Shown in pieces: positions 5,484 to 56,373 of a stretch of DNA of 64,000 nucleotides. The position numbers and the translations under genes were made by a program. Source of the stretch: Smithellaceae bacterium (GTDB taxonomy: Bacteria > Desulfobacterota > Syntrophia > Syntrophales > Smithellaceae); NCBI GenBank assembly GCA_963682015.1, contig OY820932.1:3034618-3098617 (forward strand). The letters run 5' to 3'. Numbering within the stretch: position 1 is the stretch's first letter; every line of letters starts with the position of its first letter. The notes beneath the pieces are model-generated. The model ran no database searches, was not told where the DNA came from, and saw nothing but the letters and a program-made list of their open reading frames with translations.

Positions 5484-5544
5484 AAATAACCTCCGAAACA
5501 TGTTTCCGGGAGAATCATTCTCCCGGACGGTTCCGGAACTGGTT

Positions 5545-5662
5545 CTCCTCGTCGAAGCCGACGAAGTTAGCTGAAGGGCTCGGGCCGAAAAGGTTACCCT
5601 ACGCTGATGCGATGCGCCCCCAAAAATTGGGTCCTCCGCTCCTGAGAATCAGGATTAGGCAT
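5545..5662 (-). promoter_or_regulatory. c-di-AMP riboswitch (ydaO/kimA class) in the kup leader
   Basis: The minus strand reads CCUAAUCCUGAUUCUCAGGAGCGGAGGACCCA...GGGGGCGCAUC...CCCGAGCCCUUCAGCUAACUUCGUCGGC. This matches the remembered ydaO consensus blocks (GAGCGGGGGACCCA, GGGGUGAAUC, CCCGAACCCGnCAGCUAACCUCGUAAGC). A hairpin CCGGGAGAAUGAUUCUCCCGG follows, then the RBS. Confidence 0.75.
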
Positions 5663-5707
5663 ATGTGCTGTAGTTTCTAGAACATCTTTTAATGCCTGTC
5701 AATCAGC

Positions 5708-36235: not shown

Positions 36236-37687
36236 ATGGATCTTGTTCATGCTGTCGCATCGGCCGCCGGAAGCATTCGGATTCAGGATGTTCTGGACGT
36301 GGCCATTATTGCCGCGATGATCTTTGCGCTTTTAATGTGGTTCAAGACCCGGGCGTCGCGCTTTGTCCTGATCGGCATTTTTCTGCTGGGCGTTGTGTAT
36401 CTGGCTGCCCGCTTTTTTCAGCTTTATCTCACCATTATTGTGTTGCAGGGGTTTTTTGCCATTCTGCTCTTTGTGCTGGTCGTGATCTTTCAGGAAGACC
36501 TGCGCGGTTTTTTTGAACGGCTGGCCATGCTGGGCAATCTGCGCAAGGATGTCCGGCCTCTGTCCGAACTGGAAAAGGTCGCGGGCATTATTGCGGAAAC
36601 CACGGGAAATCTGGCCAAAAAGCGCGTCGGCGCTCTGATGGTCATTCAGGGGGATGATCCGCTTGATCGTCATCTTACCGGCGGGACTGCGCTTGGCGGA
36701 CGGATCAGCGAACCGCTCCTGGCCAGCATCTTCGATCCTCATTCCGCCGGGCATGACGGTGCGGTGGTGATCAAGGATGACCGGGTGATCCTTTTCGGCT
36801 GTCATCTGCCGCTGTCAATCAAGACTGCGCATTCTGAAAACATCGGCCTTCGGCACACGGCGGCGCTCGGGCTGACGGAGCGGTCGGATGCCCTGTGCAT
36901 TGTCGTTTCCGAGGAACGGGGAACCATTACCGTTGCCGAGGGCGAATCCCTCACCGTGGTTTCCGGCGCCTCCGCGCTCAATGAAGTGCTGGAGAAATAT
37001 TATATCCGCTTTCAACCCTCGCCCAGAACCCGGCCGCTTCGGGGCTGGCTCCGGGAAAACACCAGGGAGAAAATCATCGCTCTGGGGCTGGCCTGCGTTC
37101 TCTGGGTAGCTTTCGGATATCAGCGGGACATTGTCCGGCGTGATTTTCTGGTTCCCGTTGAATATAAGAATATTCCGCAAAGCTGGCAGATTGACGAGCC
37201 CCGCATCTCGGAAGCCAAAGTCATTCTGCAGGGGCCCGAACAGGCCTTTCATCTGCTCAATGAAAAATCGCTCAGGCTTTCGCTGGATCTAGCTCTCCTG
37301 ACGGAAAAAAAGCGGGAATTTGTTTTGACCAAAGATATGATCAACGCGCCGTCCAGCATATCGATTTCCGATATCAGTCCCGCAAAAATCCGCGTCTATG
37401 CAACGCGAATGGTCGGCGCGACGCTGGCGGTTCACGTTCCCACACGCAACCGGCCGCCCGATAGCACAGCGCTGCATAAAATCACATGGAGTCCGGCCAC
37501 CATCCGGGTACTGATGGATCCCCGGCTGAATCCCGAAGACGTCCGGTTGGAAACCGAGCCCGTTGATCTTGAAAACATATCATCCTCTGTCATCACGACA
37601 TTGAGGGTTTTACCGGTTGCCGGAGTTTCTTTTCCCGACGGCAAAGCGCCGCAGATCCGCGCCACCATCCGCGTCAAAAAGAAATAG
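36236..37687 (+). CDS. cdaA: Diadenylate cyclase CdaA fused to a YbbR/CdaR-like domain
   Basis: Three N-terminal TM helices and DAC motifs (GALMVIQGDD, DGAVVI, LGLRHTAALGLTERSDALCIVVSEERGTITVA). After a further TM segment come ~200 aa with YbbR-repeat character (VPVEYKNIPQSW.., VILQGPEQAF..). Confidence 0.8.
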   Translation: MDLVHAVASAAGSIRIQDVLDVAIIAAMIFALLMWFKTRASRFVLIGIFLLGVVYLAARFFQLYLTIIVLQGFFAILLFVLVVIFQEDLRGFFERLAMLGNLRKDVRPLSELEKVAGIIAETTGNLAKKRVGALMVIQGDDPLDRHLTGGTALGGRISEPLLASIFDPHSAGHDGAVVIKDDRVILFGCHLPLSIKTAHSENIGLRHTAALGLTERSDALCIVVSEERGTITVAEGESLTVVSGASALNEVLEKYYIRFQPSPRTRPLRGWLRENTREKIIALGLACVLWVAFGYQRDIVRRDFLVPVEYKNIPQSWQIDEPRISEAKVILQGPEQAFHLLNEKSLRLSLDLALLTEKKREFVLTKDMINAPSSISISDISPAKIRVYATRMVGATLAVHVPTRNRPPDSTALHKITWSPATIRVLMDPRLNPEDVRLETEPVDLENISSSVITTLRVLPVAGVSFPDGKAPQIRATIRVKKK

Positions 37688-46840: not shown

Positions 46841-47625
46841 AAAAGGGGACGGTTCTATTTATTACCTTTTTCCCTATCTTTTCCGCCTTCTTCTTTCCTT
46901 GGACGTCCACGCTTTTTGATCACGGCTTCCAGCTTATAGCGTTTCTGAACTCTCTGTGCAAAGTCGTTGCCTCCGTATATCGTCCTGCGATCCATTGCCC
47001 CGCGCATTGATTCATTTTTGAGCTTCATATGCTGAACAAAGGAACGGTATTCTTTTCTAACCGATTCATCCGTCGATAGTTGATCAAAGATGATATGATG
47101 ATCGATCAGATCATCTCTTTTCCCGCAGGCATTTGCCCGGTAGCTGCTCCACGGATAATCCTTTGGGTCCCTCACCATCCCGGCCCTCACAGGATTCAGC
47201 TCGACATAGCTGCCACAGGCTAGAAGATACTCGTCTTTGGAAATAATGATGCTCTTAAACCTGTCCTGCCAGAAGTGGCCTGAATATTTATATTTCTTTT
47301 TATAATGCTGAGCGTAAGAGAGGTTGATCCCCTTCATGATCTGAGAGAGATTACCGCCCTCTTGCGTGGCTTCCATGACCAGATGGACATGATTGGACAT
47401 CAAAACGTAATGGTAAAGTTTATACTTGTATTGATTTTTATATTTCCTGAGAATTTCAAGATATTTCCCGAAGTCTTCGTCATCACAAAATACATCCTGC
47501 TTGTTATTCCCGCGCGTCAGGACGTGATAGACAAACTCTTTTGGAGCTATTCTTGCTGATCTCGGCATGAAATTTTATTACCAAAACCAAGCCTTCCTGT
47601 CAATAAATAGAACCGTCCCCTTTTT
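46841..47625 (-). mobile_element. RayT (REP-associated tyrosine transposase) unit bracketed by 23-bp perfect inverted repeats
   Basis: AAAAGGGGACGGTTCTATTTATT at 46841-46863 has its exact reverse complement at 47603-47625. Confidence 0.6.
46855..47568 (-). CDS. IS200-like Y1 (HUH) transposase, RayT type
   Basis: YHVLTRGNNKQDVF, MSNHVHLVME (HUH) and YVELNPVRAGMV..YPWSSY motifs. Confidence 0.8.
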   Translation of the reverse strand: MPRSARIAPKEFVYHVLTRGNNKQDVFCDDEDFGKYLEILRKYKNQYKYKLYHYVLMSNHVHLVMEATQEGGNLSQIMKGINLSYAQHYKKKYKYSGHFWQDRFKSIIISKDEYLLACGSYVELNPVRAGMVRDPKDYPWSSYRANACGKRDDLIDHHIIFDQLSTDESVRKEYRSFVQHMKLKNESMRGAMDRRTIYGGNDFAQRVQKRYKLEAVIKKRGRPRKEEGGKDREKGNK

Positions 47626-47627
47626 CT

Positions 47628-47701
47628 CTTAAACGCCAAACGCTCCGGGAGCTTTGGTGGCTCGCAGAGCGTTTGGCTTACCGACTAACGGATTGTTGGG
47701 C
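47628..47701 (-). repeat. attC-like site
   Basis: The minus strand reads GCCCAAC...GTTTAAG. The internal arms GCCAAACGCTC / GAGCGTTTGGC are perfect 11-mers. Confidence 0.45.
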
Positions 47702-47976
47702 TGCTAATTTAAAAAGTGCGAAAGATTGTTGACACTACCAGCTTCGCAGGCTGGGAACGTCACTTGCCACGGCCATCTCTGTGGCGATAAGCCGCAAAGG
47801 GCCGTGGCGGCTGGCGAAGACGCTGGCAACGCAGACCGGCATGACGAATCGATGGTTAAAGGATCAAGGGTTGTTGTCTGTAAAAGACTTGTGGGTGAAC
47901 ATTCACTACCCGGCTAAGGCCCGGTAATCTCTGTGAACCGCCCGGTGCGGACCCGCATGCCGGGTGGTGTGGGGGC

Positions 47977-49518
47977 CAATGCTGTTGAATTAAGGAAAGG
48001 CAATATTGTCCGTGTCCGTAATATATTGGAATTAGTGAATAAACGCATTGACAACAATTTTCTTCTGTGCAAAATATCTTACAAAGTTCGGCAACTAAAG
48101 GCGAATTTTTTCGAAGAAAGTAACTGAAAGGACTTCATTATGGCACACATCATGACTTGAAAAAATATGCCACATTAACGCGTACGCAAAAAAATTTGTA
48201 AAGATTATTCCTCGGACAATTGATCCTTCAAAGAAACAGACCCCAAAAGATTTCACCCGTAACAACAAACTCACCTTTCCAAAACTCATCACCTTTATTC
48301 TCTCTATAACTGCCAGTGGAAGCAGCAAGGGTGTGGATATAAAATCGAGTGACTTTTTTCGAAACGCCAAACGTAGCGGTCTTTGGCCAGACGCCGAAGC
48401 GATCCACCGCAGCACCCTCACCAAAGCACGTGGTAAGATTGATTGGCAGGTTTTTCAATACATCCTCAAGGATGCGGTGCAGTTAGCTTATGATTGTTGG
48501 CCCAAAATCCCAAAATATCTGTGGCATGGTTTGTCGGTCTTTGCCATAGATGGTTCTTTCTACACTCTTCCGGCAACCCAAGACATCCGAAAAGAGTTTG
48601 ATCCAAAAAGTGGACTGCAACATTGCGGTAAAGGACACTTTCCGCAGTGTAGGGTTTCCACTGTCTATGATATCTTCAGACGTCTTCCTATAGCAAGAAG
48701 CGTGGTTACTGTTAATTCATCCGAACGTGATGAAGCGAAAAACCTGTTACCTTTCATTCCCATCAACAGTGTCTTGCTTTTCGACCGAGGTTACCCAAGC
48801 TATGAGTTCATCTCTTACTTGTTAAATACGTTCACAGGTTATTTTATCTTCCGTTGTCCGGCACAACATGCCTTCCCTGCTGTCGAAGAATTTATCGAGA
48901 GCGGCAAGCAGGAAGACGAGATTTTGATCGTTCCAAGCGGAAAATACCTGGCCAAGGTATCCGCAATGCAAAGAGAGACGCTTAAAGCCTTCAAGGTCAG
49001 GATTATAAAACTGGTAAGTCCTGATGGCACGGTATCTGTCCTTTTGACCAACCTGTACAACCAAAAAGAATTCCCGATGCAAGAAATCATCGCGCTTTAT
49101 TTCAGGCGATGGGAGATCGAAAACCACTATCGAGATGAAAAAATTGAGCTCGAAGTGGAAAGATTCCATGGCAAAACATGTAATAGTATTCGTCAGGAAC
49201 TATTTTCGGCCGTGATCATGACAGTCATTTCGAGAACTCTCATGGTTCTGTCATCGCAGCTATTCCAAAAGGAGTCCAAAGAACCCCAGTTTAAGAATGC
49301 TATTATGACTCTTGCAGCAGAAGCTGCGGTGCTCACTGCCGATGATCCTGAAAAATCCATTGAAATTTTTCGATCCATTTTGCATAATATCTACCGTGTA
49401 AAGTACTACCGCCCAAAACTTCCCAGACCAGGTCAACCGCGTGTGACTAAAAAAAGCCTGAATCGATGGGTTTTTAAGAAAATTAGGAATCTCGCTAATG
49501 CTTAATTCAACAGCATTG
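47977..49518 (+). mobile_element. IS4-family insertion sequence, copy A (1542 bp)
   Basis: 18-bp terminal inverted repeats CAATGCTGTTGAATTAAG, flanked by the 11-bp direct repeat GGTGTGGGGGC (47966-47976 / 49519-49529). Confidence 0.85.
48333..49505 (+). CDS. IS4-family DDE transposase
   Basis: DDE motifs VFAIDGS, LLFDRGY and YFRRWEIENHYRDEK (Y-2-R-3-E-6-K). The frame stays open upstream to 48156 and encodes a typical N-terminus (FTRNNKLTFPKLITFIL), so the true start is unclear. Confidence 0.85.
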   Translation: MDIKSSDFFRNAKRSGLWPDAEAIHRSTLTKARGKIDWQVFQYILKDAVQLAYDCWPKIPKYLWHGLSVFAIDGSFYTLPATQDIRKEFDPKSGLQHCGKGHFPQCRVSTVYDIFRRLPIARSVVTVNSSERDEAKNLLPFIPINSVLLFDRGYPSYEFISYLLNTFTGYFIFRCPAQHAFPAVEEFIESGKQEDEILIVPSGKYLAKVSAMQRETLKAFKVRIIKLVSPDGTVSVLLTNLYNQKEFPMQEIIALYFRRWEIENHYRDEKIELEVERFHGKTCNSIRQELFSAVIMTVISRTLMVLSSQLFQKESKEPQFKNAIMTLAAEAAVLTADDPEKSIEIFRSILHNIYRVKYYRPKLPRPGQPRVTKKSLNRWVFKKIRNLANA

Positions 49519-49685
49519 GGTGTGGGGGCTGGGGGAGAAAAACCCCCGGCTACCCGATTGAACTAACTCATCGCATAGGAGTATATCTTAAATGCTGCAC
49601 GCGTTTAAATTCCAATAGGGGTGGGTCCTGACTACATTGTTTGCAATGAAGCTTAAAATAAAATATTTCATGATCCATAAAAAAA

Positions 49686-51010
49686 CACTACTGTCCCAAC
49701 GTTTTCGTAAGGTGATGATGTAAGTTATAGAAAACAATGAGAATAAGCAATAAAAAGTTATTTATCGATTTGAAATATTTTTTTCTGGAATGCCATAGTC
49801 TCGCATTAAATGGCGAGGAGATGGCCGATGAATTCTGGAAGAACGATATTTGCGCAGATCATGGACTATTTGCCGACTTACGAATTCCGGCAATGCGTAG
49901 AACGATATGCAGGAAACTACAAAGTCAAAAGCTTTTCCTGTTGGGATCAATTCTTAAGCATGGCCTTTGCTCAACTGACATACAGAGAAAGTCTACGGGA
50001 TATTCAAGCCTGCCTTCGTGCAGCCAAACAGAAGACCTATCACATGGGCATCCGCGGAAAGATTTCCCGCAATACACTGGCTCATGCCAACCAGACAAGA
50101 GACTGGCACATCTACGCCGACTTCGCCCAAGTCCTGATCCGGAAAGCTCGACAACTTTATGCCAACGATTCGTTCGGCATAGAATTGGACCAAACCATTT
50201 ACGCGCTGGACGCCACAACCATCGACCTTTGTCTTTCGCTTTTCCCGTGGGCAACGTTTCGCAAAAACAAGGGTGCGGTGAAACTGCACGCTCTTCTCGA
50301 TTTGAAAGGAAACATTCCAACGATCGCCTTTATTACCAGCGGGAAAGTTCACGAAGTCAACATTCTCGACAAACTGCCGATAGAAGCAGGCGCTATTTAC
50401 ATCATGGATCGTGGCTATCTGGATTACGCGCGCCTTTACAGGTTACATCAATCAGCAGCCTATTTTGTAACACGTGCCAAGAGCAATGCCAGATACGATT
50501 GTTGTTATTACCAGAAGATCAACAAAACGACCGGTCTAAAATCCGACCAAGTCGTAACCTTACACGGCTACTACACCAGGAAAGATTATCCCGAAAGGCT
50601 CAGGCGTATTGCTTATTACGACGAAGCACGGAACAAGAAACTGATTTTTCTAACCAACAACTTCGCCGTACCGGCCCTGACCATCACGGAGATTTATCAC
50701 AAACGCTGGCAGATCGAATTGTTTTTCAAATGGATCAAGCAACACCTACGGATCAAAGCGTTTTACGGTACGTCCGAGAACGCGGTAAAAACACAAATCT
50801 GGATAGCCATCTCTGTTTATGTTCTGGTGGCAATTATCAAGAAGCAGTTGAACCTGGAGGAGAGTCTCTACACAATTTTACAAATTATCAGCGTAACGCT
50901 TTTTGAGAGAATACCGCTTTTACAAGCGCTTACGGATATTGAGGTTGCATCGGAAAATATAGAAATCAGCAACCAAATGAATTTATTCGATTAACGTTGG
51001 GACAGTAGTG
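49686..51010 (+). mobile_element. IS4-family insertion sequence (DUF4372-type transposase)
   Basis: 18-bp inverted repeats CACTACTGTCCCAACGTT (49686-49703 / 50993-51010) with the 9-bp target duplication ATAAAAAAA (49677-49685 / 51011-51019). Confidence 0.85.
49828..50994 (+). CDS. IS4-family DDE transposase with DUF4372 N-terminal domain
   Basis: MNSGRTIFAQIMDYLPTYEFRQCVERY.., with DDE motifs YALDATTIDL, YIMDRGYLD and YHKRWQIELFFKWIK. Confidence 0.85.
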   Translation: MNSGRTIFAQIMDYLPTYEFRQCVERYAGNYKVKSFSCWDQFLSMAFAQLTYRESLRDIQACLRAAKQKTYHMGIRGKISRNTLAHANQTRDWHIYADFAQVLIRKARQLYANDSFGIELDQTIYALDATTIDLCLSLFPWATFRKNKGAVKLHALLDLKGNIPTIAFITSGKVHEVNILDKLPIEAGAIYIMDRGYLDYARLYRLHQSAAYFVTRAKSNARYDCCYYQKINKTTGLKSDQVVTLHGYYTRKDYPERLRRIAYYDEARNKKLIFLTNNFAVPALTITEIYHKRWQIELFFKWIKQHLRIKAFYGTSENAVKTQIWIAISVYVLVAIIKKQLNLEESLYTILQIISVTLFERIPLLQALTDIEVASENIEISNQMNLFD

Positions 51011-51539
51011 ATAAAAAAATTATTGTAACTGTATTTGCAGTCCGTAGTGTTTTTATAACCTGGCTGACATGATAAGCGTGTTGGCTCTATATACTTATCT
51101 GTGTTAACAAACATTTTTGTCTCACATAATAATATATTATTGTTTGGTGATAATGGCGAATAGCTAATATCGATCGTAAGATCATTATTGTCATATTTCC
51201 ATTCCCATGGAATAAAAGGAAGAAATGGTGGACCAATAGATAGTTGCTCAATGCTAATCGAAGACCGAACATACATTGTAAATCCATCACATTTGTAACT
51301 GTATGTCGCAAACTTCGTCTCCCCTATGTACAATTCGGCGCCCCGATATTCCGTTTTTTCCCATCCCTTCGAATATTGCGCTTGATAGTACGTATCTTTG
51401 GACAAGAAGGAACAACCTGCTTGTAAGAAAATAAATATTATACTCAAGAAACTGATTATCTTACTTACTACTTTATTTGTACTCGCTGTTATCTCGTGGT
51501 TGAGATGATATTGATTATCATTCATTTATCATTCGTCCT

Positions 51540-51592
51540 GTTCAACGACAACATCAGCCGGAGCCGCGCAGCGGCGATCGGCTGTATGTATT
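51540..51592 (-). repeat. attC site, R' half (split by the group II intron; the remainder is at ~55036-55045)
   Basis: GTTCAAC GACAACATCAGCCGGAGCCGCGCAGCGGCGATCGGCTG on the plus strand is almost identical to the core of the attC at 55473-55533. Confidence 0.55.
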
Positions 51593-52063
51593 GTGTACGC
51601 CCGGCACGGGCGTGAACTTATGGGGTGCAAGTCCCCTGTACGAGAATCCTGTTAAAGTTTCAAAGTTGGGAAACATTAACAAAAGTATTAGCCGAAGGCA
51701 AGGGCGGAATCGCGAGAGACCGTCTGAAGGAAGCCGGAGTGCAAACCGATGAGCCGACGAACAGAAACAGCATACAAGGCCCAGTCTCCGGGCAAGTCAG
51801 CACAACATGACAACACCCCGGATTCGGGAGACAGGGTAAATGCTGCGGTTGCATCGGGACAGTTCACGTTCTTATCCGGGGAGACCTGCCCGACAAGGGA
51901 CCGTAATTGCGGAACCGCTCTGTGTGGCAACATGCAGGGTGATCGGGCAGGAGTCAGCAGCGGCCGTAGTAGGCGCGAGGAAACAAGCCCGGCGAAAGGA
52001 AAGAAAAGCCGGGAAAGACTTACCCCGCCGAAGGGCCAAACACAGAGAAGGGGAAGAACAACC

Positions 52064-53404
52064 ATGAGCTCTCATAACACGAAGAATCCGCACGGAGGAG
52101 TGTCCGTGAGGCGCGTGATGGAATCGTTCGACCCAGATGAGAACCTGCTTATGCGGATTTTCTCCAAAGAGAACATGGTGGAAGCGTGGAAACGGGTGAA
52201 GTCCAATCAAGGCGCACCCGGCGTCGATGGAATCAGCATTGAACAATTCCCCGAACACACCAGACCTCTCTGGGCTCAAATCCGACAATCTCTTTTAGCA
52301 GGCACTTACCAACCTCAACCGGTCAAACGGGTGGAAATCCCTAAAGCAACCGGGGGCACCCGCCCTCTGGGGATTCCAACGGTTCTGGACCGGCTGATCC
52401 AACAGGCGATCGCTCAGGTTCTGAGTCCGATCTTTGATCCGGGGTTTTCCGAATCAAGTTTCGGTTTCCGTCCCGGACGGTCCGCCCATCATGCGGTTTA
52501 TCAGGCCCGGGAGTATATTCGGGAAGGCTGCCGCATCGTTGTCGATGTGGACCTGTCGAAGTTTTTCGACACGGTTCATCATGATGTTCTGATGCTCCGG
52601 GTAGCGCGAAAGGTTCGCGACAGGCGGGTATTACGCCTCATCGGGAAATACCTGCGCGCCGGGGTCATAGTCAATGGCCGTCTCCAGGAAACCCTTTTGG
52701 GAGTTCCTCAGGGCGGACCACTGTCACCATTACTGGCCAACATCCTCTTGGATGATCTGGATAAAGAGCTGGAGAAACGGGGCCACCGGTTTGCCCGGTA
52801 TGCGGATGACTTCATGATTCTGGTCAGAAGCGAAAGAGCGGGCAAGCGGGTCATGGAAAGCCTGAAGCGCTTTCTGGAAAATCGTCTCAAGCTCAGGATC
52901 AATCAGGAGAAAAGCCGGGTGGTTCCAACAAATCAGGCCAAATTCCTTGGTTTCATTTTCCGTGGAACCAGAATTGTCTGGTCAGAGAAGGCCTTCCTTG
53001 AATGTAAGCGAAGGATCAGGGAACTGACCGGACGGTCGTGGTTTGTCTCAATGGACTACCGCTACAAGAAGCTTGCCGAATACCTTCGCGGTTGGATGAA
53101 CTATTTCGGGATTTCGGAATATTACCATCCGATTCCTGAAATCGATCACTGGCTGAGAAGGCGTCTGCGCATGTGCTATCTCAAACAGTGGCGCAAAGCA
53201 AAGACCAAGGTGAGGGAGCTTCGCAGGCTGGGAACGTCGCTTGCCACGGCCATCTCTGTGGCGATAAGCCGCAAAGGGCCGTGGCGGCTGGCGAAGACGC
53301 TGGCAACGCAGACCGGCATGACGAATCGATGGTTAAAGGATCAAGGGTTGTTGTCTGTAAAAGACTTGTGGGTGAACATTCACTACCCGGCTAAGGCCCG
53401 GTAA
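52064..53404 (+). CDS. Group II intron reverse transcriptase/maturase (no endonuclease domain)
   Basis: GAPGVDGISIEQF, RPLGIPTVLDRLIQQA, FARYADDFMILV (YADD) and the X-domain FLGFIF..YLRGWMNYF. The product ends right after the thumb domain. The ATG at 52064 has a GGGGAAG RBS. Confidence 0.9.
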   Translation: MSSHNTKNPHGGVSVRRVMESFDPDENLLMRIFSKENMVEAWKRVKSNQGAPGVDGISIEQFPEHTRPLWAQIRQSLLAGTYQPQPVKRVEIPKATGGTRPLGIPTVLDRLIQQAIAQVLSPIFDPGFSESSFGFRPGRSAHHAVYQAREYIREGCRIVVDVDLSKFFDTVHHDVLMLRVARKVRDRRVLRLIGKYLRAGVIVNGRLQETLLGVPQGGPLSPLLANILLDDLDKELEKRGHRFARYADDFMILVRSERAGKRVMESLKRFLENRLKLRINQEKSRVVPTNQAKFLGFIFRGTRIVWSEKAFLECKRRIRELTGRSWFVSMDYRYKKLAEYLRGWMNYFGISEYYHPIPEIDHWLRRRLRMCYLKQWRKAKTKVRELRRLGTSLATAISVAISRKGPWRLAKTLATQTGMTNRWLKDQGLLSVKDLWVNIHYPAKAR

Positions 53405-53453
53405 TCTCTGTGAACCGCCCGGTGCGGACCCGCATGCCGGGTGGTGTGGGGGC

Positions 53454-54995
53454 CAATGCTGTTGAATTAAGCATTAGCGAGATTCCTAATTTTCTTAAAA
53501 ACCCATCGATTCAGGCTTTTTTTAGTCACACGCGGTTGACCTGGTCTGGGAAGTTTTGGGCGGTAGTACTTTACACGGTAGATATTATGCAAAATGGATC
53601 GAAAAATTTCAATGGATTTTTCAGGATCATCGGCAGTGAGCACCGCAGCTTCTGCTGCAAGAGTCATAATAGCATTCTTAAACTGGGGTTCTTTGGACTC
53701 CTTTTGGAATAGCTGCGATGACAGAACCATGAGAGTTCTCGAAATGACTGTCATGATCACGGCCGAAAATAGTTCCTGACGAATACTATTACATGTTTTG
53801 CCATGGAATCTTTCCACTTCGAGCTCAATTTTTTCATCTCGATAGTGGTTTTCGATCTCCCATCGCCTGAAATAAAGCGCGATGATTTCTTGCATCGGGA
53901 ATTCTTTTTGGTTGTACAGGTTGGTCAAAAGGACAGATACCGTGCCATCAGGACTTACCAGTTTTATAATCCTGACCTTGAAGGCTTTAAGCGTCTCTCT
54001 TTGCATTGCGGATACCTTGGCCAGGTATTTTCCGCTTGGAACGATCAAAATCTCGTCTTCCTGCTTGCCGCTCTCGATAAATTCTTCGACAGCAGGGAAG
54101 GCATGTTGTGCCGGACAACGGAAGATAAAATAACCTGTGAACGTATTTAACAAGTAAGAGATGAACTCATAGCTTGGGTAACCTCGGTCGAAAAGCAAGA
54201 CACTGTTGATGGGAATGAAAGGTAACAGGTTTTTCGCTTCATCACGTTCGGATGAATTAACAGTAACCACGCTTCTTGCTATAGGAAGACGTCTGAAGAT
54301 ATCATAGACAGTGGAAACCCTACACTGCGGAAAGTGTCCTTTACCGCAATGTTGCAGTCCACTTTTTGGATCAAACTCTTTTCGGATGTCTTGGGTTGCC
54401 GGAAGAGTGTAGAAAGAACCATCTATGGCAAAGACCGACAAACCATGCCACAGATATTTTGGGATTTTGGGCCAACAATCATAAGCTAACTGCACCGCAT
54501 CCTTGAGGATGTATTGAAAAACCTGCCAATCAATCTTACCACGTGCTTTGGTGAGGGTGCTGCGGTGGATCGCTTCGGCGTCTGGCCAAAGACCGCTACG
54601 TTTGGCGTTTCGAAAAAAGTCACTCGATTTTATATCCACACCCTTGCTGCTTCCACTGGCAGTTATAGAGAGAATAAAGGTGATGAGTTTTGGAAAGGTG
54701 AGTTTGTTGTTACGGGTGAAATCTTTTGGGGTCTGTTTCTTTGAAGGATCAATTGTCCGAGGAATAATCTTTACAAATTTTTTTGCGTACGCGTTAATGT
54801 GGCATATTTTTTCAAGTCATGATGTGTGCCATAATGAAGTCCTTTCAGTTACTTTCTTCGAAAAAATTCGCCTTTAGTTGCCGAACTTTGTAAGATATTT
54901 TGCACAGAAGAAAATTGTTGTCAATGCGTTTATTCACTAATTCCAATATATTACGGACACGGACAATATTGCCTTTCCTTAATTCAACAGCATTG
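53454..54995 (-). mobile_element. IS4-family insertion sequence, copy B (appears identical to copy A, inverted)
   Basis: Same 18-bp inverted repeats and same 11-bp duplication GGTGTGGGGGC (53443-53453 / 54996-55006). Confidence 0.85.
53467..54639 (-). CDS. IS4-family DDE transposase (copy B)
   Basis: The protein in the ORF track is identical to 48333-49505. Confidence 0.85.
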   Translation of the reverse strand: MDIKSSDFFRNAKRSGLWPDAEAIHRSTLTKARGKIDWQVFQYILKDAVQLAYDCWPKIPKYLWHGLSVFAIDGSFYTLPATQDIRKEFDPKSGLQHCGKGHFPQCRVSTVYDIFRRLPIARSVVTVNSSERDEAKNLLPFIPINSVLLFDRGYPSYEFISYLLNTFTGYFIFRCPAQHAFPAVEEFIESGKQEDEILIVPSGKYLAKVSAMQRETLKAFKVRIIKLVSPDGTVSVLLTNLYNQKEFPMQEIIALYFRRWEIENHYRDEKIELEVERFHGKTCNSIRQELFSAVIMTVISRTLMVLSSQLFQKESKEPQFKNAIMTLAAEAAVLTADDPEKSIEIFRSILHNIYRVKYYRPKLPRPGQPRVTKKSLNRWVFKKIRNLANA

Positions 54996-55034
54996 GGTGT
55001 GGGGGCTGGGGGAGAAAAACCCCCGGCTACCCGA

Positions 55035-55463
55035 TTACGTTTTATTATTTAGTTCCATCCTGTAGTGGGATTCGAGAGCCTTTAGTAAGCTGTTTGTTGA
55101 ATTATTTATATGCTCAATGGCGGGTAAACGTTTAAGACCCGGATAAAAATATTCTAATTCCTTCCCTTTATACACTGGATTAATCATTATGATGCACTGT
55201 TGCAATTCTTGATTTTCTGGATAAATATTAGCAATTCCCATTTCTAAAGCTCTGGACCATGCTGCTTCAAGATTATGGCCAATGGATTTCAATTCATTTT
55301 CATCTTTATTCGCAAAATAGATATATGACTTTAAAGCTAATTCAATTGCATGCAAATACAAGTAGTATACTGGTAAAGGTGACGACGAACCATTATTAAT
55401 TTGATTCGCGCTCTCGCAGAAGCCCTGTCCAGTTGTCAGTAATCCAATGTGATGTGTGTCCAT
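55035..55463 (-). CDS. Integron cassette protein, HEPN-like helical domain (tentative)
   Basis: YLYLHAIELALKSYIYF....LKSIGHNLEAAWSRA resembles the helix-2/helix-3 pattern of HEPN domains. The start lies 9 nt after an attC R' box, and the stop abuts the intron-split attC. Confidence 0.4.
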   Translation of the reverse strand: MDTHHIGLLTTGQGFCESANQINNGSSSPLPVYYLYLHAIELALKSYIYFANKDENELKSIGHNLEAAWSRALEMGIANIYPENQELQQCIIMINPVYKGKELEYFYPGLKRLPAIEHINNSTNSLLKALESHYRMELNNKT

Positions 55464-55472
55464 ATTTTATAT

Positions 55473-55533
55473 ACGTAACGAAAAGCTAAGCCGGAGCCGC
55501 GAAGCGGCGATCGGCTTTAGCGACGGGTTATGG
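55473..55533 (-). repeat. attC site
   Basis: The minus strand reads CCATAAC...GTTACGT. Arms GCTAAGCCG/CGGCTTTAGC and GCCGC/GCGGC pair. The stop codon of 55528-56295 lies inside R''. Confidence 0.6.
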
Positions 55534-56308: not shown

Positions 56309-56373
56309 CCATAACGAAAAGCTCAGCCGGAGCAAGCCAGCGGCTTGCGATCGGCTGTAGCGACGGGTTGAAC
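56309..56373 (-). repeat. attC site
   Basis: The minus strand reads GTTCAAC...GTTATGG. Arms GCTCAGCCG/CGGCTGTAGC and GCAAGCC/GGCTTGC pair. Confidence 0.6.

Follow-up and report, generated by a model that had tools for sequence, protein, structure and literature searches.

The 64,000-nt stretch of contig OY820932.1 from a Smithellaceae bacterium (assembly GCA_963682015.1, positions 3,034,618 to 3,098,617; hereafter the window) carries two identical copies of an insertion sequence (IS) of the IS4 family, located at exactly the same position of two copies of one group II intron, between intron domains V and VI (the J5/6 linker), and in opposite orientations. This arrangement very probably arose by two independent and recent insertions of the IS, once into the full-length intron and once into a nearby 5'-truncated remnant of the same intron. 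Two separate insertions are favoured because the IS lineage prefers targets rich in G-runs and the intron site is the best match to this preference in the region. The features on which this reading is based are given below in window positions, with TSD for target-site duplication, IRL and IRR for the left and right terminal inverted repeats (IRs) and IEP for intron-encoded protein.

IS copy A: 47977-49518, + strand; 1542 bp, transposase on the + strand, IRL 47977-47994, IRR 49501-49518.
IS copy B: 53454-54995, - strand; exact reverse complement of copy A, called transposase open reading frame (ORF) 53467-54639 (-).
Intron remnant A, upstream part: 47740-47976, + strand; last 237 bp before the IS with the 3' end of the IEP gene, domain V at 47937-47968 and the left TSD at 47966-47976.
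Intron remnant A, downstream part: 49519-49559, + strand; right TSD 49519-49529, domain VI 49523-49556 and the intron 3' end, identical to 54996-55036.
Intron B upstream of the IS: 51593-53453, + strand; 5' end GTGTACG, domains I-IV, IEP 52064-53404, domain V 53414-53445, J5/6 at 53446, left TSD 53443-53453.
Intron B downstream of the IS: 54996-55036, + strand; right TSD 54996-55006, domain VI 55000-55033 with a bulged A, 3' end ...CCCGATT.

An initial annotation of the window, made from the sequence alone, had described two identical IS copies at 47977-49518 (+) and 53454-54995 (-), embedded in intron sequence that keeps one orientation while the IS interior is flipped, and both statements are correct, the coordinates to the base. 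A repeat search of the window recovers the IS copies as inverted arms (47976-49519 and 53453-54996) of 1544 nt that are 100% complementary, the two ISs being 100% identical to each other, and the flanks as direct repeats. The base-by-base flank alignment proposed at that time gives one mismatch (at 47763) between 47740-47975 and 53217-53452 in the upstream part, while the downstream parts 49520-49559 and 54997-55036 are identical. The 18-bp IR CAATGCTGTTGAATTAAG is perfect and occurs four times in the window, at 47977, 49518 (-), 53454 and 54995 (-), against a chance expectation of 0.08.

The assignment to the IS4 family also stands. The transposase frame (48156-49505) scores 170.6 bits against NF033592 (cutoff 115) and also matches PF01609 (DDE_Tnp_1), and in an alignment with 23 homologues both the catalytic residues D132, D210 and E322, with spacings of 78 and 112, and the YREK motif (Y315-R318-E322-K329) are invariant. 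The hallmarks of the family, namely a D(60-110)D(100-150)E spacing, the Y(2)R(3)E(6)K motif, terminal IRs and a target duplication of about one helical turn, are thus all present. Members of the IS4 subgroup measure 1400-1650 bp, generate direct repeats of 10-13 bp and carry the end signature -AATR--------WTW (De Palmenaer et al. 2008, Table 1, PMC2266710). The ends of the window element, CAATG-CTGTTGAA-TTA, fit this signature, and its length of 1542 bp and its 11-bp duplication lie inside the subgroup ranges. From its end signature and duplication length only, the element is assigned to the IS4 subgroup as a new member.

The 11-bp duplication reported in the initial annotation can be verified against relatives that lack the IS. 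The 11-mer GGTGTGGGGGC is present four times in the window (47966, 49519, 53443 and 54996; chance expectation 0.02), each time on the + strand and directly next to an IS end. The related introns L121, L123 and L124 (L-numbers denote loci of IS or intron relatives from genomes and metagenomes), whose IEPs are 86-87% identical to that of the window, are IS-free and contain the 11-mer once, so that it represents a genuine TSD. Taking the IS as CAATG...CATTG, a perfect 11-bp duplication was found in 28 of 57 related loci, 11 bp being the modal length of perfect duplications. From the window alone, a 9-bp duplication with 19-bp IRs would also be possible; this alternative was rejected because the base preceding CAATG varies freely across the clade and because of the modal length of 11 bp.

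Within the intron, the 11-mer consists of the final 3 nt of domain V, the single J5/6 nucleotide and the first 7 nt of domain VI. In the predicted fold of the reconstructed IS-less site (-46.5 kcal/mol, z = -4.3), a domain V of 32 nt is followed, after one linker nucleotide, by a domain VI that has a bulged A, and this places the insertion between domains V and VI, as had been claimed. The expected characters of these domains (a domain V of about 34 nt with a 2-nt bulge and a tetraloop; a bulged A in domain VI, located 7-8 nt before the 3' end) were found, and compensatory changes in domain V occur among the introns of the window, L002, L121, L126 and L117. The Rfam model RF00029, which covers domains V-VI, remains below threshold even on the intact relatives L121, L123 and L124; its absence from the window is therefore uninformative, and folding and alignment were used instead. 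After insertion, each domain is intact, but the two are separated by 1553 nt instead of 1 nt, and on account of this distance normal splicing and mobility of the IS-bearing intron are most likely abolished.

Of the two intron copies originally described, only the one that hosts IS copy B is a full-length intron, while copy A sits in a 5'-truncated 3' remnant of 276 bp (236 + 40), the homology of which to the full intron begins abruptly at 47740. The 5' end of intron B, at about 51593, was placed by alignment with L121, L123 and L124, and all related introns end with CCCGATT and then diverge. Domains I-IV of intron B are recognized by the Rfam models RF02001 (51706-51870, 132.5 bits) and RF01998 (51916-52036, 49.5 bits), and its IEP combines RVT_1 with the maturase domain GIIM and matches TIGR04416 with 423 bits (cutoff 300). 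The degree of divergence between the two sites provides a relative age: no mismatches are found over the 1542 bp of the IS versus one over the 276 bp of flank, and the flank rate would predict 5.6 mismatches in the IS (Poisson P ~0.004). Since the IS is free of mismatches, the IS copies appear to be younger than the duplication of the intron.

Recurrent use of the same site by relatives of the IS in metagenomes decides in favour of repeated insertion. A subclade was defined by 83-95% nucleotide identity to the window IS and at least 84% amino acid identity in the transposase, and it contributes, with the window included, 12 distinct contexts. Seven are located at the homologous J5/6 position:

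Window, copy A: IS sense to the intron; 5'-truncated remnant; duplication GGTGTGGGGGC.
Window, copy B: IS antisense; full-length intron; duplication GGTGTGGGGGC.
L002/3/4/87/88 (one locus): IS sense; 5'-truncated intron with an IEP 85% identical to that of the window; duplication GGTGTGGGGGC.
L001: IS sense; ORF-less intron with a rearranged right flank; duplication on the left flank only.
L117: IS antisense; IEP 45% identical; duplication GGTGTAGGAGG, one flank seen.
L126/127: IS antisense; IEP 48% identical; duplication GGTGTGGGAGG.
L128: IS antisense; only the domain VI side remains; one mismatch between the duplication copies.

Three of these contexts are sense and four antisense to the intron. 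In L001, an IEP gene is absent; Rfam places domains I-IV at 157-430, domain V follows at about 690-725, and the right flank does not correspond to domain VI, which suggests a later rearrangement on that side. The last 300 nt of the host introns are only 58-83% identical and their IEPs down to 45%, compared with 83-95% nucleotide identity among the ISs. As the ISs are more alike than the introns, the IS must have moved between divergent introns rather than co-diverged with them, and most close intron relatives are IS-free. Four further contexts of the 12 (L085, L086, L130/132 and L131/133) are not introns. The remaining one, L129, is a short-read contig of 1569 bp, in which the intron 11-mer adjoins both IS ends in mutually reverse-complementary form, with TGGTGTGGGGGC as the left flank and its reverse complement GCCCCCACACCA as the right one. 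Such flanks would be expected if two IS copies of opposite orientation, both in intron sites, had recombined, or if the contig were an assembly chimera.

The wider clade comprises 116 further loci from genomes and metagenomes with 40-70% identical transposases and conserved IRs, and a scan of genome contigs yielded no relative above 68% amino acid identity. Among the relatives of 40-70% amino acid identity within L005-L120, no insertion at J5/6 was detected by reading the flanks by eye and by tblastn with the IEP; the latter revealed an adjacent reverse transcriptase gene in L046 only, where the IS is not at J5/6 (~490-516, near the 3' end of the IEP gene). In L115 (~1510-1600), a distant IS relative lies within CCCCCAGGGGGG, which encodes the 'PQGG' reverse transcriptase motif of a group II intron, so that L046 and L115 show insertions at other G/C tracts of introns. 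An element dedicated to introns should have nearly all of its copies at one target, which is not the pattern found: the IS is not intron-dedicated, because four of the 12 close-relative contexts and all sites read in distant relatives lie elsewhere. Copies at unrelated sites had been named in the initial annotation as an argument against targeting, and such sites were in part found among the relatives; the recurrence at J5/6 in divergent introns and in both orientations nevertheless still favours targeting over duplication.

What is targeted becomes apparent from 29 non-redundant insertion sites with confirmed duplications. A run of at least four G or C residues within the duplication and 3 bp on either side is present at 23/29 sites compared with 7% of background 17-mers, and the duplicated 11-mers contain 76% GC (background 51%). 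On the G-rich strand, G dominates positions -5 to -2, 0 to 3, 6 to 10 and 12 to 14, i.e., the G-runs are phased, confined to one strand and non-palindromic, and the orientation of the IS relative to this strand is evenly distributed (14:14). The targets include G-run repeats (L037 and L040) and homopolymeric G/C tracts (L014 and L073), and many adjoin GC-rich hairpins; J5/6 itself lies between two hairpin-coding palindromes. As a prediction test, a weight matrix was derived exclusively from the 26 sites of distant relatives that lie outside introns, and the window, freed of the ISs, was scored with it on both strands. Of 121,740 positions, the two J5/6 sites rank first, exactly in register with the observed duplication. 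The sequence GGGTGGTGTGGGGGCTGGGGG, which encodes the last part of domain V, the J5/6 linker and the first part of domain VI, is the best match to the target preference in the region and occurs in multiple copies. The target rule of the clade suffices to explain that this intron segment is hit, that the same base is used and that either orientation occurs. The specificity is for a G-run motif carried by the intron and not for ribozyme-coding DNA as such. In this respect the earlier proposal that the IS targets a ribozyme-coding segment does not hold, as the whole clade prefers G-run-rich 11-mers and close relatives also use sites outside introns. A canonical G-quadruplex was considered for the intron site and rejected, as the site contains only three runs of at least three G residues, and the quadruplex idea is speculative.

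Mechanistically, the 11-bp duplication implies staggered target cuts 11 bp apart. By analogy with IS10 and IS50 of the IS4 family, a cut-and-paste chemistry may be assumed, and a transposition complex that treats both IS ends alike at target capture would insert in either orientation, leaving the same flanks around a flipped interior. Landing in another selfish element might, in addition, offer the IS a 'safe haven'.

Two independent, highly site-specific insertions, one of the two explanations offered initially, are supported by the recurrence at J5/6, the occurrence of both orientations and the rank of the site in the weight matrix search. The second explanation, extended here to gene conversion, assumes a single insertion, after which the intron 3' end, the IS and domain VI were duplicated or gene-converted to the second site and the IS was inverted via its own 18-19-bp IRs. 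The shared region does correspond exactly to the intron 3' end, the IS and the intron end, the IRs are perfect, so that inversion between them would reproduce the structure, and site A, as a remnant, could stem from a partial duplication. This course of events is improbable, however, as it requires two rare steps, one of them a recombination over only 18-19 bp, and a single co-duplicated block is not expected to show 0/1542 mismatches in the IS and 1/276 in the flank. It is also unnecessary, given that the site is the top-scoring predicted target and is used both ways in unrelated introns (L117, L126 and L128 versus L001 and L002). Because both orientations recur in unrelated introns, independent insertion either way represents a demonstrated habit of this lineage.

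A somewhat smaller probability is assigned to an assembly artefact or population heterogeneity, with one copy, or its orientation, resulting from a mis-join through identical repeats or from an invertible segment between the inverted IS copies. Identical 1.5-kb inverted repeats located 3.9 kb apart within repeated intron sequence are a classic trap for assemblers, and the mutually reverse-complementary flanks of L129 are those expected of a chimera or an IS-IS inversion. In the window, however, the outer flanks are unique for each copy (47739 and upstream, 49560 and downstream, 53216 and upstream, 55037 and downstream), and each copy has a matching direct 11-bp duplication, whereas inversion between the ISs would give reverse-complementary flanks; the source contig of 4.78 Mb moreover suggests a finished assembly. 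Least credible is that a single IS entered an ancestral intron and that the composite spread by retrohoming or vertical descent, since this scenario, with which the J5/6 association in several metagenomes and the individually intact domains V and VI would agree, fails on the divergent host introns (ISs 85-91% identical in introns with IEPs only 45-48% identical) and on the mixture of sense and antisense orientations, quite apart from the IS-free state of most close intron relatives and the non-intron members of the subclade (L085, L086, L130-133).

Several points weigh against two independent and recent insertions. Copies of this exact IS are known from the 64-kb window only, all other loci being relatives, and the arrangement itself is known from the assembly alone. 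Gene conversion between the IS copies could also erase mismatches in the IS, and the weight matrix was built on only 26 sites. Furthermore, the transposase frame contains an in-frame TGA and has no canonical start upstream of a GTG at 48333, which puts the autonomy of the window copies in doubt, although relatives that clearly moved carry the same in-frame TGA.

The position of this codon is as follows:

In-frame TGA in the transposase frame: 48153-48155, + strand; mirrored in copy B.

The TGA is kept in 7/8 close relatives of the IS, and the same codon specifies Cys, Trp or Arg in other members of the clade (clade-wide TGC 21, TGA 13, TGG 6, CGC 5 and TGT 1). It was recorded in L002, L085, L086, L126, L128, L130, L033, L034, L045, L060, L078 and L098 and is part of the conserved motif WHxx[C]xxxxCQ. 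The interval from the TGA at 48153 to the GTG at 48333 contains no ATG, GTG or TTG in the window, even though it encodes conserved family residues, which implies read-through, recoding or an unusual start. Selenocysteine was considered because homologues have Cys at this codon; it was rejected, as inspection by eye gave no selenocysteine-insertion-like hairpin downstream and as Trp and Arg are also found there. A programmed -1 frameshift on an A7 run at 48188 was rejected because the run is not conserved among relatives. A more far-reaching possibility, to which only limited probability is attached, is that this IS subclade is evolving into a hyperparasite of group II introns. Its transposase would then read a non-B feature of phased G-run arrays (quadruplex-like structures or A-form tracts between the domain V and VI palindromes) rather than the duplex sequence, and its expression would be gated by recoding of, or read-through at, the TGA that replaces the conserved Cys codon.

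Known systems share single aspects of this arrangement. The IS4 subgroup agrees in size, end signature, 11-bp duplication and DDE/YREK motifs, and 'spectacular apparent insertion specificity' has been noted for some of its members (PMC2266710). In the literature searched, however, no member is described with a G-run target rule or a group II intron hot spot, nor does PMC2266710 mention an in-frame TGA that recurs close to the 5' end of the transposase frame. According to work cited in the same source (Hallet et al. 1991, 1994, cited in PMC2266710), IS231A of the IS4 family has a hot spot in the terminal repeats of Tn4430. Duplications of about 11 bp and a repeatedly used, sequence-defined target that is rich in G/C triplets and located within another mobile element are common to both cases. 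IS231A belongs to another subgroup (IS231, with CAT ends), and its host is a Tn3-family transposon and not a retroelement. The IS231A target consensus is reportedly the palindromic GGG N5 CCC, whereas in the present clade a single strand carries the G-runs at either end of the duplication and also outside it.

ISs that target repetitive extragenic palindromic (REP) sequences prefer short repeats of GC-rich palindromic DNA as insertion sites (Tobes and Pareja 2006, PMC1525189). Many targets of the present clade are likewise adjacent to GC-rich hairpins, but the REP target is an extragenic repeat, whereas J5/6 lies inside a ribozyme gene and is ranked first by the G-run sequence alone. Group IIC-attC introns (PMC3001079) provide another case of nested mobile elements at a 'safe' repeated site, and the host intron in the window, located past a repeated hairpin and opposite to the ORFs, resembles them. 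Their site choice depends on RNA-DNA pairing and stem-loop recognition, as opposed to protein-DNA recognition by a DDE transposase, and here the intron is the victim. Additionally, IStrons (PMC4227781) physically combine a self-splicing group I intron with an IS; in these functional chimeras, the ribozyme excises the IS from transcripts, whereas the IS in the window disrupts the catalytic core region of a group II intron. With mixed orientations and incongruent phylogenies, no sign of a co-evolved unit is seen here. Neither a hot spot for IS insertion in domains V/VI of an intron nor an IS that targets G-runs was encountered in the literature searches. Strong hot spots of IS4-family elements, including those inside other mobile elements and used in both orientations, are already known; the hot spot at J5/6 is new.

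The arrangement is a natural example of a transposase target preference that creates a hot spot inside another selfish element, with an IS placed in a group II intron beside a repeated hairpin. It also provides a testable rule for an uncharacterised clade of the IS4 subgroup, namely 11-bp duplications in phased, strand-asymmetric G-runs, by which insertion sites can be predicted to the base. Separation of domains V and VI represents a recurrent way in which bacterial group II introns may be disabled, and bears on models of intron colonisation and extinction. As a caution, identical flanks around a flipped interior need not signal inversion or mis-assembly.

Intron B displays traits of group IIC introns. 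A profile search of its IEP returned only RVT_1 and GIIM and thus no endonuclease domain, the insertion site lies a few nucleotides past a stem-loop, and the intron is opposite in orientation to the neighbouring ORFs, which are on the - strand. The stem-loop is the following:

GC-rich hairpin: 51544-51586, + strand; ends 6 nt before the 5' end of intron B.

This hairpin is likely the homing-site stem-loop of intron B, and the same conserved motif of about 43 nt (AACGAnAA..AGCCGGAGC-loop-GCGATCGGCTnTA) is also found upstream of the L121 and L123 introns on unrelated contigs. Unoccupied copies are present at 55477-55519 and 56313-56355, together with a weaker one at 36833-36875. The repeated hairpins are located between small minus-strand ORFs, and their R''/R' core sites match the attC consensus only loosely; the region resembles a cassette array in which attC-like sites accompany an intron of group IIC-attC type.

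Further mobile elements lie near the two sites. Directly upstream of remnant A, a gene for an IS200-like Y1 transposase (46855-47568, - strand, 237 aa, PF01797) is accompanied by a perfect hairpin at about 47633-47680, and this element may have produced the 5' truncation at 47740. A second, unrelated IS of the IS4 family lies between the two copies at 49686-51010, with a transposase gene at 49810-50994 (+; DUF4372 and DDE_Tnp_1). Its IRs are CACTACTGTCCCAACG, its insertion is flanked by a duplication of 9 bp (ATAAAAAAA), and an ORF on the - strand that starts at 51525 is interrupted by it at the 3' end. Finally, a cyclic di-AMP riboswitch (RF00379, 85 bits) was identified at 5541-5671 (-) and is unrelated to the IS insertions.

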